DNA of 64,000 nucleotides from Stegostoma tigrinum (taxonomy: Eukaryota). The notes below the pieces were generated by a model. The model was not told the DNA's origin. It saw only the letters and a program-made list of their open reading frames with translations, and did not search any database. The translations under genes and the position numbers were made by a program. Below, piece by piece: positions 855 to 64,000 of this stretch (within the stretch, counting starts at the first letter, position 1; each line of letters opens with the position of its first letter). The stretch is from contig NC_081391.1 of the NCBI RefSeq assembly GCF_030684315.1, positions 13,121,342 to 13,185,341 of the forward strand, read 5' to 3'.

Positions 855-1599
855 AAGCCAGAGAGGGATGAGTGGGGTAACAGTCTGCAGGCGCTGCAGG
901 TTGCCCTGGATCTGGAGAAGAATGTGAACCAGAGTTTGCTGGATCTACACCAACTCTCCACAGCCCAGACTGACCCTCATGTAAGCTTCATCTCCTCCTC
1001 ATTCTCATCACTGCGAGACCCTCAGGGCAACACTTCATTGGTTGGTCTGTGTGGATTGGAAATTCACAGGTGTGCACTGATCACTTTGGGTCCATGCTGC
1101 TGAGCAGTTGTTACATGGTGATCAGTAATGAAGTGAAATGGGAATTTGGAAGGCAATCCATTGGGAGTGATGAAGTGATATTGGCCATTGAATTCCCATT
1201 CTCACTTGGGAGCATTACAGTGGAATGATCATTGTCCATCACCATCCAACTCAGCTCCACTTCACAAACAGCAAGATGGAGCAGCTGAAATCCTATTGTC
1301 CTCACTGGCACAGATTTTCCAGGTGTTAGCTAAATTTTCAGGGCTGTCTGGAACTAGTATGGTTAAGCATGTTTTTCAGTGGGAATTCTGAAATTGTCTT
1401 GGATAGTGTTAATGCACCCAGTTGTCATATTCCTCTGTTGCAGCTGTGTGACTTCCTGGAGACTCACTATTTGGATGAGGAGGTGGAGATCATCAAGCAA
1501 CTCGGGGGCTACATCACCAACCTGAAGCGCCTGGGAGCCCCTGAGAATGGGATGGGAGAGTACCTGTTTGACAGGCTCTCCCTGGAGGACAGCAGTTAG
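855..1599 (+). CDS. Ferritin subunit (H/M/L-intermediate), copy 0 (type D), partial: exon 3 855-980, exon 4 1444-1599; exons 1-2 lie left of the window
   Basis: tcag|AAGCCAGAG...GACCCTCAT|gtaagc encodes [42 protein letters not shown]; ttgcag|CTGTGTGAC...TAG encodes [51 protein letters not shown]. Exon boundaries match vertebrate FTH1/FTL. AATAAA at 1729-1734. Confidence 0.93.
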
Positions 1600-3709
1600 T
1601 GTGGCCTGGAGTACTGTCTGCTTGGTCTGAATGCATTCCCCACTTCACCCTGGACAATCTGTCTCCTTCCAAGGAGAAGGGAATTTTGTAGCAAAGAATG
1701 TAATGGCTGTACCAGCTAAATGGAAATGAATAAAATGATGTATTGATCTTGCTTATTGTCCATCATTCAGAGCTCTGAATACTTTGGGTGATAGCTCTTG
1801 CTTGAAGCCAGTTCTCTTCTGTAATTTGATTGGTCCAATTTCTAATTGGACTGGGCAACCCTTCACGGAATCGCTCACTATCCCCACATTAGAATGTAAC
1901 TAGATGGAGTGTTTTTTTTGGTTATTCCTGTGGAAATTGAAGGTGCTTCTCCTCCAAATAGGATAAGGTTGGGATTTGTCAATTGTGGCATTGGCTTTCT
2001 TCTAGAGGACAATTAGTGCGCTTCTGGATATGGTGGGTTCAACTGGAGCTCAAAGAAATTGTCTTCCTCTGGTGCCAGGAAGCTCCCACACCGTCCAAAG
2101 AGACTTCTCTACCCAGCCTGATAGAATTTGGGATAGTGGTGTTCAATTGCACATTTCCCTTGAAATCTCTTCCCCGCCTCAGCCATCCTGCGTACTCAAT
2201 TATTGCCTGAATGATGACAGCAACACAAAGTGAAGACAGCCCTTTATCTACTGACCCAGCTGCCTGATCACAAAGGTCTAAAGGTAGAGGCCCAGCAGGC
2301 TCTGATTTCAATCCAGCTGGCGGAAGCAGCAGAGGTGTGAAACAATCTCAACTGCCTGGTATATCTCTTTTTTTTTCCCCCATTGGGCCCTACCCTGACC
2401 AATAAACAGTATATTCTCAGTATTGTTACTTTTGGTTTCACCATCCCAAACTGTGGCTGGAGCTCTTTCTCTTCCGCATCTCCCCGCTTCTCTTCTTTCT
2501 TCCCCCCCCCCGACCCAACCTCTTCTTTCTTTGCTTTCCACGTGCCCCCACCAGCCTAAACATTCACCACAGCCCCTTTCCCTGGGAGTCAGCTCAAGAC
2601 ATTCACCTGAACTGGACTGGATTATAATGTAGGGCCTCATTGCCGCTTACAGCAGGATAACAGGGACCTGGGAATAACACAGCAATGCACCTGGTTAAAT
2701 GCTGCTGTTTGATTGGCTCTTGTTGCTAAAGCCAGCATTGAGCGCACTAAGCTGCTCCCTTGGTTCCTCTGAGCTTCCCACATGGTGAACGTGACTCCTG
2801 ATGCAGGTTGATTGGGTGAAATCAGATTGAAGGAGCAAAGTGGCTGGGAGAGGAGACATGGAGATGCTGACTTTCCTTTACGGCTGCTTCCTTTATCTTT
2901 CAAGGTGTCAGAGATCATGGGTTCTTGAGGGGGCTCTCAGAGGCATCCTGAGGATTGTTCCAGGGAGTTTTGTAGCGAGTGCACACTGCAGCCTTCATCG
3001 AGGTTGGCGGGGGGGGGGGTGCTGCAGAGTCAAAAGGCACTCAACATATTTGTTCCACCACATAAAGCAATTTATTTTCGGTGAAAATAAGTCTTGGCTA
3101 CAGTAACCCTCAAGTGCAGGAAGGGGCCATTAGGCCCATTAAATCTGCATCGACCTTCTGAACAGCATCCTCCTTAGACCCAACCCCTTTGCCTTAACTC
3201 CACATTTCCCACGGCTAATCGACCTAGTCTGCAAGCCCCTGCTCACGATCGACAATCTGCAAATCATTGGGCTGTGTGAGGAAACTCAAGCACCTGGAGG
3301 AAATCCACGCAGGCCATCACCCATGGGTAGAACCGAACATGGGTCCCTGGCACTGAGCCGCCAAAACATTCTAAAGTACCAAAGGAAAGGAATACACTGC
3401 GGCAAACTACGTCATGGGAATAGACTCTGCAGCCCAGCCCGAACTTGCAGACCAGGTTTTCATAAACTGTGTAGTGCCATTTGCCTACATTTGGCCCATC
3501 TTTCTCTAAACCGTTCCTTTCCATGTAAATCTCCAAATGTCACTTAAATGTTGTAATTCTATCCACCTCGACCACTTCCTCTCGCAGCTCGTTCCACACA
3601 CGCACCACACTATGTGTGAAAATGTTGTCACTCACGCCCCTTTTAAATCTTGCCGCTCTCCCCTCAAACCGGTGCCCTCTAGTTTTGGACCCCCCCACCC
3701 TGTCCCAGC

Positions 3710-63700: not shown

Positions 63701-64000
63701 GTGAAGTTTTAGAGTATATTTTATTCTCATTTTCAGGGAGATGTCCTTCCAGAATTTGCACTTGTGCGGGAGGTCAAAGGTCATTTCAGCAATTTCATCA
63801 TCAACCACTCATCAATTCTGATTGGTTTTTTGACCCGATTCCCATCCTGCACTGATTGGATGTGGCAGCTGATCAATTGATTAACAAGAGTGTTTGGCCA
63901 TCACTGATGATCTCATTTCCTGCTTCATAAAATGAGTGTTGGCTCCTGGAGTATAAATAGAGTCCCAGGGCAGGGATGTTTACTGTTGCTTTTAGCTGTG
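59109..64000 (+). repeat. Segmental duplicate of 1-~4890 (offset ~59.1 kb)
   Basis: taatctctccttttaatggatttttcagcc at 1 and 59109; colinear through exons 3-4, the spacer and the next promoter, with scattered substitutions and indels. Confidence 0.93.
63771..63959 (+). promoter_or_regulatory. Promoter of a further type A ferritin copy beginning beyond the window (DR1 63771-63783; TATAAATA 63952-63959)
   Basis: Near-identical to 4666-4854. Confidence 0.8.

Follow-up and report, generated by a model that had tools for sequence, protein, structure and literature searches.

Vertebrate ferritins are, in the textbook picture, single genes under the switch formed by the iron-responsive element (IRE) and the iron regulatory protein (IRP). 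What, then, might be the role of a shark locus in which ferritin genes follow one another in tandem, lack an IRE, and carry altered catalytic residues? We address this question for a 64-kb stretch of DNA from the carpet shark Stegostoma tigrinum (G000:C50:13,121,342-13,185,341; referred to throughout as the window), which belongs to a much larger tandem array that we call array A. We find that array A is real and expressed, a known expansion with apparently newly described anatomy. We consider it probable, with considerable room left for other readings, that array A mass-produces a ferroxidase-poor, light-chain (L)-like subunit in oocytes, where it would assemble together with catalytic subunits encoded by a second ferritin array (array B) for maternal iron storage.

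Exon mapping resolves the window into nine units on a single strand, if partial ones are included: U0, of which the 3' half is present, seven complete four-exon units (U1 to U7), and U8, represented by its promoter. In a self-comparison of the window, the same-strand unit recurs each 7-13 kb. The features are listed below by window position, with residues here and throughout in human heavy-chain (H) numbering, which equals array A position + 3 according to gapless alignments with frog middle-chain (M) ferritin and human H.

855..1599 (+): U0, exons 3 (855-980) and 4 (1444-1599); exons 1-2 precede the window, and the whole unit is intact
4666..4852 (+): U1 promoter, with a direct repeat 1 (DR1)-type element at 4666, CTGATTGG (Y/CCAAT box) at 4747, E-box CAGCTG at 4761, and TATAAA at 4847
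4941..10137 (+): U1, intact gene, exons 4941-5042, 7870-8016, 9392-9517, and 9982-10137; 176 amino acids (aa), K62 and E141; AATAAA at 10265
14262..14447 (+): U2 promoter, with DR1 at 14262, CTGATTGG at 14342, CAGCTG at 14356, and TATAAA at 14442
14535..18695 (+): U2, intact gene, exons 14535-14636, 16397-16543, 17950-18075, and 18540-18695; splice joints in a public run
23916..28480 (+): U3, broken copy; exon 2 (27203-27347) has lost 2 nt, the stop codon is gone, and TATAAA is absent
31637..36632 (+): U4, intact gene, exons 31637-31738, 34368-34514, 35888-36013, and 36477-36632; TATAAA at 31543
40577..44735 (+): U5, intact gene, exons 40577-40678, 42436-42582, 43990-44115, and 44580-44735; TATAAA at 40484
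46761..51491 (+): U6, frame open; exon 3 is followed by a GC donor, and unrelated DNA lacking DR1, Y-box, E-box, and TATAAA stands in place of the promoter
53699..60708 (+): U7, intact gene, exons 53699-53800, 58310-58456, 59967-60092, and 60553-60708; TATAAA at 53596
63771..63957 (+): U8 promoter, with DR1 at 63771, CTGATTGG at 63818 and 63852, CAGCTG at 63866, and TATAAA at 63952

Five complete copies (U1, U2, U4, U5, and U7, with ATG at 4941, 14535, 31637, 40577, and 53699) combine an intact 176-aa frame, GT-AG splice sites, and a TATAAA promoter. This agrees with the initial annotation, which had read the window as at least nine same-orientation, intron-containing ferritin units, five of them complete and intact in frame, splice sites, and promoter. 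The gene of U8, which starts 46 bases beyond the window end, is also intact, and the U5 block is 96% identical to the U2 block. A DR1-type element occurs at 7 of the 8 promoter positions of the window; all exon-2 copies (7/7) encode K at the position of human-H E62, and all exon-4 copies (8/8) encode E at that of Q141. The closest named proteins to exon 2 are shark RefSeq models at 92-98% identity, mostly from Stegostoma tigrinum and Chiloscyllium, which RefSeq labels heavy- or middle-subunit-like. As a separate observation, intron 1 of U7 (4509 bases, against ~2350 in six sister units) contains a 1.7-kb C-rich low-complexity tract (54578-56281), which is either a local expansion or assembly noise.

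Array A as a whole comprises 167 head-to-tail four-exon units, all on the plus strand, over 1.42 Mb (G000:C50:12,987,143-14,403,990), bearing out both the proposed continuation beyond the two window ends and the proposed high copy number, for which a scaffold-wide count had been suggested. Our census, taken over the gap-free 12.88-14.52 Mb stretch of G000:C50, counts exon 2 169 times and exons 1, 3, and 4 167 times each; 164 units are complete and 113 are intact in frame and splice sites, 91 of the latter with TATAAA. The intact copies represent 97 distinct coding sequences (CDS) and 83 distinct proteins, and an exon-4 27-mer has 147 matches genome-wide, every one inside array A. The middle of the array consists of recent block duplications, the largest being 126 kb (15 units) at 99.78% identity, which could be a false duplication, with several further blocks of 35-65 kb repeated at 97-99.5%. 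The introns of random intact copies differ by 18-24% (246 of 250 pairs scored), and most copies therefore appear to be old and real. Given that divergence and the 97 distinct CDS, we rejected an assembly artefact for most of the array; processed pseudogenes were rejected because the units carry introns and promoters, and a few intronless, stop-bearing ferritin matches lie on other contigs. Divergence between copies, examined separately, is 0.00-0.13 for bins in exons, 0.2-0.45 for most of those in adjacent introns, and 0.02-0.095 at four-fold sites; it falls sharply at exon borders, a contrast that intron misalignment may inflate. That synonymous sites are more uniform than introns suggests exon-limited gene conversion or selection on the messenger RNA (mRNA).

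The commonest intact array A protein (P0012) aligns without gaps (176/176) to bullfrog M ferritin (E 1.5e-83), and its AlphaFold2 model (predicted local distance difference test score, pLDDT, 87.7; template-modelling score, TM, 0.94 to frog M) places helices at 11-38, 46-72, 93-120, 124-155, and 161-175, that is, a four-helix bundle plus short E helix in ~175 aa, as in vertebrate cytosolic ferritin. Exon boundaries are likewise those of the FTH1-type and IRE-bearing ferritin genes of this genome (four exons, conserved positions). Within this fold, the complete diiron ligand set of an H/M-type subunit (E27, E62, H65, E107, and Q141) is broken at positions 62 and 141: K62 is found in 168 of 169 exon-2 copies, the remaining one having the codon deleted, and E141 in 165 of 167 exon-4 copies. 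All 112 intact proteins compared have I144, and their three-fold channel (H118, C130, D131, and E134) is invariant. Human L has K62 and E141 like array A, but Y27 and G65. The standard ferroxidase-null mutant of human H is E62K/H65G/K86Q (PMC4029007); our literature searches turned up no paper on frog-M Q137E/E58A. By comparison with the null mutant, array A, with K62 present but H65 kept, has likely lost fast catalysis. The earlier description of the protein as probably ferroxidase-deficient thus stands as regards an altered centre, whereas the deficiency itself is still a prediction, with E27, H65, and E107 kept. Pairwise comparison of 96 distinct CDS gives pN/pS of 0.29 (pN 0.024, pS 0.082), and array A is under purifying but loose selection; together with the transcripts described below, this argues against an array whose copies are mostly untranscribed with dN/dS near 1, which had been named as a way for the proposal to fail.

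The proposed absence of an IRE also held. Rfam (E<=1) finds no IRE in the window, none lies in the stretch from TATA to ATG of U1, and IRE-like hairpins occur in 0 of 163 upstream regions of array A units, whose 5' untranslated region measures ~65 nt. With the same Rfam setting, a single-copy ferritin used as positive control yields its IRE at 42.6 bits (a genome-wide Rfam search, in which 82 of ~1.5 million candidates were scored, served solely to locate controls). Two single-copy ferritins of this genome keep their IRE, one being of FTH1 type (C20) and the other located at C50:21.61 Mb, and mammalian FTL carries one as well.

The array A promoter has a recurrent core: among the 163 upstream regions, CTGATTGG is present in 146, TATAAA in 112, CAGCTG in 111, and a DR1-type element in 94, with antioxidant-response (ARE) and estrogen-response (ERE) motifs in 0 of 163, although counts over copies that share homology give no independent evidence of function. 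The weight that the initial annotation had placed on a nuclear-receptor promoter is not sustained: DR1 is limited to those 94 regions and occurs in none of the 21 upstream regions sampled from other ferritins, whereas the CCAAT/Y-box is near-general and common to array B. The Y-box is associated with oocyte promoters. In zona pellucida promoters, the site for FIGLA is an E-box located within 200 bp, as described in PMC1906760. One subfamily (33 of 163 upstream regions; window 4321-4341) additionally has a direct repeat 0 (DR0) element with a TCAAGGTCA core ~620 bases upstream of the ATG. This we take to be a GCNF or NR5A-type site.

Evidence of transcription comes from public sequencing runs. 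Five contain at least half of the sampled words, and four of these were aligned to U2. In run X10, 20, 21, and 8 contigs span the three predicted introns with GT-AG joints, and summed depth is 0.8-4.5 million for exon bins, 0-1030 for intron bins, and zero over the promoter (bins 14100-14427); on the strength of the joints, the exon-dominated depth, and the bare promoter, we conclude that the run contains spliced transcript. Three exon-3 variants account for 68, 74, and 77% of its depth, compared with 69, 81, and 91% of genomic copies, and this mixture of paralog variants indicates that several array A copies are expressed. Run X14 yields two spliced contigs at depth 3-6, and X11 and X12 are low; we do not take low depth in these three runs as proof of tissue specificity. 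Beside the normal joints, X10 also shows, over window positions 14100-19000, joints that skip exons (1-3, 1-4, and 2-4) and one that runs backward from exon 3 into exon 1; these could be rare isoforms, inter-unit read-through, or assembly chimaeras.

Array A has a catalytic counterpart. Pfam matches place further ferritins (array B) at C50:19.95-21.56 Mb and on C216, and an array B exon-4 22-mer has at least 252 matches genome-wide on both strands, three among the matches listed being on other chromosomes. We sampled residues and upstream DNA from five blocks (380 kb including flanks), in which E61, E62, and H65 are present in 28/28 copies, E107 in 29/29, Q141 in 30/31, and E27 in 24/26; IRE-like hairpins occur in 0 of 26 upstream regions of this sample. 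Array B upstream DNA aligns with that of array A at a score of 53.8, versus 33.9 shuffled, compared with 28.4 versus 25.8 for FTH1 and 29.7 versus 27.6 for four single genes beside array B; judged from these alignments, the two array promoters appear to be related. Both arrays also have K at position 19 (R23 in H numbering; 102 of 112 array A and 25 of 26 sampled array B proteins), where most other vertebrate ferritins have R, a residue presumably contacted by NCOA4 in ferritinophagy. Beside array B lie divergent single ferritins (C50:21,570,729-21,609,327 and 21,659,128; L173, L174, L022, L020, and L196), including one that has K61 and Q65, another whose 5' end is GC-rich, an IRE-bearing catalytic gene, and an extra exon-1 match; these single genes are candidate old paralogues.

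Among the roles initially proposed for the protein (oocyte or yolk, liver, gut, or plasma store, structural cage, heteropolymer partner), an oocyte store combined with a heteropolymer partner is now favoured, because a preprint describes ovary-specific expression of the Greenland-shark FTL/FTH1 cluster in its accessible text (10.1101/2024.09.09.611499) and because array B supplies a catalytic sister. The ovary expression in this scheme is borrowed from another shark, and its application here is by analogy. The scheme builds on observations (the size of array A, its intact frames, residues, absent IRE, splicing, and purifying selection, and the intact ligands of array B), and its steps would run as follows. 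Many array A copies would allow very high mRNA output during oocyte growth, and that mRNA, free of an IRE, would be translated whatever the cell iron level. Array B subunits would oxidise Fe2+, while array A subunits may, like L chains, contribute shell, stability, and mineral capacity; the resulting heteropolymers would hold an iron supply for the long development of the embryo. Co-assembly of H with L chains occurs at any ratio (PMC13411386), and ferritin is reported in eggs of fish, amphibian, and snail (PMC1488847).

Several results weigh against this scheme. None of the runs is on record as RNA, X10 carries no tissue label, and contig depth gauges expression poorly and cannot rank it. The catalytic centre is not wholly dismantled: E27 and E107 are kept in 112 of 112 intact array A proteins and H65 in 108, residues that mammalian and most reptile L chains do not retain, and since the null mutant of human H alters H65 besides E62, residual activity of a protein that keeps H65 is possible. 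As an L chain, too, the protein is incomplete; the mammalian L nucleation site consists of E60, E61, and E64 in the accessible text of PMC13411386, and array A has E61 in 107 of 112 and E64 in 112 of 112, with Q (102) or R (10) at position 60. Constraint on each copy is loose, with 54 of the 167 units no longer intact and a pN/pS ratio that rises to 0.43 when each distinct variant is counted once. Finally, arrays A and B lie 5.5 Mb apart on C50, and in fish follicles the level of ferritin transcript generally correlates poorly with that of the protein, according to a published abstract.

These points leave room for other readings. Array A ferritin may be made in bulk for the oocyte or yolk and serve mainly for something other than storing iron (as a protein reserve, a cage or scaffold, or a binder of other ligands), which we consider rather unlikely. 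Both the catalytic and the L nucleation site are incomplete and iron control is lost; moreover, a cited title names ferritin the main ATP-binding component of amphibian oocytes, and atypical IRE-less ferritins of invertebrates are predicted not to bind iron in the accessible text of PMC8395497. The invariant three-fold channel, the retained E27, H65, and E107, and the amplification of a catalytic sister array alongside argue against this reading. It is unlikely, in our judgement, that array A serves a somatic tissue such as liver, gut, or blood through its DR1 element, apart from an oocyte-type array B. The restriction of DR1 to array A among the regions sampled, the physical separation of the arrays, and the missing tissue label of X10 would all suit such a role; set against them are the promoter core common to both arrays, the ovary-specific expression of a Greenland-shark cluster with FTL-labelled copies (in the preprint's accessible text), and, as a weak hint only, the low depth of the three other runs. 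Still less do we expect array A to keep a slow, rewired ferroxidase site (E27, H65, E107, and E141) whose homopolymers buffer iron and oxidative stress: the near-invariance of the first three residues and the protection against reactive oxygen species (ROS) by 14 tandem ferritin copies described in the accessible text on the hadal snailfish (PMC10746142) favour it, but the bridging E62 is Lys wherever the codon exists, as in L chains. That array A is largely an assembly artefact or a neutral, untranscribed amplification is very improbable and already largely refuted, the high identity of the repeated blocks being outweighed by the distinct CDS, diverged introns, pN/pS, and spliced transcripts, and by clusters of 19-76 related proteins in other sharks.

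The maternal-storage reading leaves the question of where the K62 subunit came from. K62 proteins of seven shark genera (this genome plus Chiloscyllium, Hemiscyllium, Mustelus, Cetorhinus, Carcharodon, and Heptranchias) form one clade; among them E141 is confined to carpet sharks, and the other sharks retain Q141. An 81-row tree joins the shark K62 clade to reptile L chains (support 97.4/100). Some records in the set look mislabelled or like contaminants (reptile-type L chains labelled giant panda or nematode and a shark-type ferritin labelled Aeromonas; P0195, P0205, and P0052). The suggested phylogeny with L chains yields a divided answer: with mammal and amphibian L added (38 rows), array A groups with tetrapod L in 757/1000 bootstraps (LG+G4) or 888/1000 (mixture model), yet the topology joining arrays A and B is not rejected (p-AU 0.44, approximately unbiased test), and without eight active-site and channel columns the L grouping falls to 12/1000 and the A+B grouping reaches 734/1000, all in a set without teleost, coelacanth, lungfish, or chimaera L-like sequences. 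Because the signal weakened with more taxa and fell without the functional columns, we do not accept firm FTL orthology. FTH1 orthology of array A was rejected, the FTH1-type gene being single, IRE-bearing, and on C20. Array A is L-like by its residues, and convergence of that state with tetrapod L is a live option.

Synteny with the FTL neighbourhood, also proposed as a check, is likewise partial. Human FTL has, we assume, BAX, GYS1, and RUVBL2 as neighbours; C50 carries RUVBL2 (18.55 Mb) and BAX (26.43 Mb), 4-12 Mb from array A, but the glycogen synthases are on C20 and C33, and a strict first look found no GYS1 on C50. The RUVBL2/BAX linkage does not tell which C50 ferritin is the FTL orthologue. 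We tentatively raise the possibility, on balance against expectation, that one IRE-less ancestor with an oocyte promoter gave rise to the catalytic and the K62 array, each >150 copies, in which case the dead L-like site would be independent of tetrapod FTL and the subunit ratio would be set by gene copy number, not by iron. In the array A flanks, the 126 of 267 non-repeated open reading frames (ORFs) that were scanned gave one reverse transcriptase and two Frag1/DRAM matches, with no match on the left. The first gene on the right is a minus-strand Frag1/DRAM-family gene at C50:14.415-14.421 Mb (L064, L065; two weak Pfam matches), possibly, we presume, TMEM150B.

Taken together, ~420 shark ferritin copies stand outside IRE/IRP control, split into catalytic and predicted non-catalytic arrays, and the database labels of heavy or middle subunit for array A genes are corrected. 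If the maternal-storage reading is true, it would explain the iron supply of very large shark eggs; K62 with E27 and H65 kept would be a natural intermediate for testing the loss of catalysis in the L chain; and whether that chain arose once in gnathostomes or by convergence would become directly testable. The earlier report of expansion and ovary expression limits the surprise.

A ferritin heavy-chain expansion in the Greenland shark has reportedly been described in a journal. The initial annotation had allowed that such an array might be undescribed; shark ferritin mega-clusters have in fact been reported, in a 2024 preprint whose accessible text gives 155 FTL and 179 FTH1 copies in the Greenland shark, >85% full length, in clusters syntenic with white shark (10.1101/2024.09.09.611499). 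Array A (167 K62 units) and array B (at least 252 E62-type matches) almost certainly represent the expansion described there, and array A fits the description of >100 clustered full-length copies shared across sharks. That preprint was the sole report of shark ferritin clusters found in our literature searches; the main text of a second Greenland-shark preprint (10.1101/2025.02.19.638963) does not mention ferritin. In its accessible text, the first gives the subject one paragraph, without active-site analysis, IRE, promoter, or tree, and has the largest cluster mixing both labels, whereas here the two types occupy separate arrays. The E62 array is moreover a distinct clade and does not correspond to the FTH1 orthologue, a single gene on a different chromosome. 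Expansion and ovary expression are thus already reported, and the anatomy of the arrays is apparently newly described; in a search whose coverage excluded subscription papers and preprint supplements, we did not find IRE loss, the catalytic/non-catalytic split, the promoter, or possible L-like convergence in shark arrays in print.

Among other known systems, tetrapod FTL (the amphibian and reptile "oocyte isoform" L) resembles array A in K62, E141, Leu at the four-fold channel position, and the RUVBL2/BAX linkage group; array A differs in retaining E27 and H65, in lacking E60 and an IRE, and in having 167 copies versus one. Ferritin M of amphibians and fish is the best sequence and fold match, and databases label copies "middle subunit-like", but array A departs from frog M by three active-site changes (E58K, Q137E, and D140I in frog numbering). 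The fthl27-type genes of the hadal snailfish share tandem amplification for dosage, at 14 copies (ten times fewer) with broad tissue expression and a heavy-chain-like description in the accessible text (PMC10746142). The IRE-less yolk ferritins of Schistosoma and Lymnaea and atypical sponge ferritins are like array A in egg or germline association, IRE loss, or substituted catalytic sites. Mammalian FTHL17 is a germline ferritin comparable to these egg ferritins. Unlike array A, the yolk, sponge, and FTHL17 ferritins are not mega-arrays of intron-containing genes, and their origins are separate.

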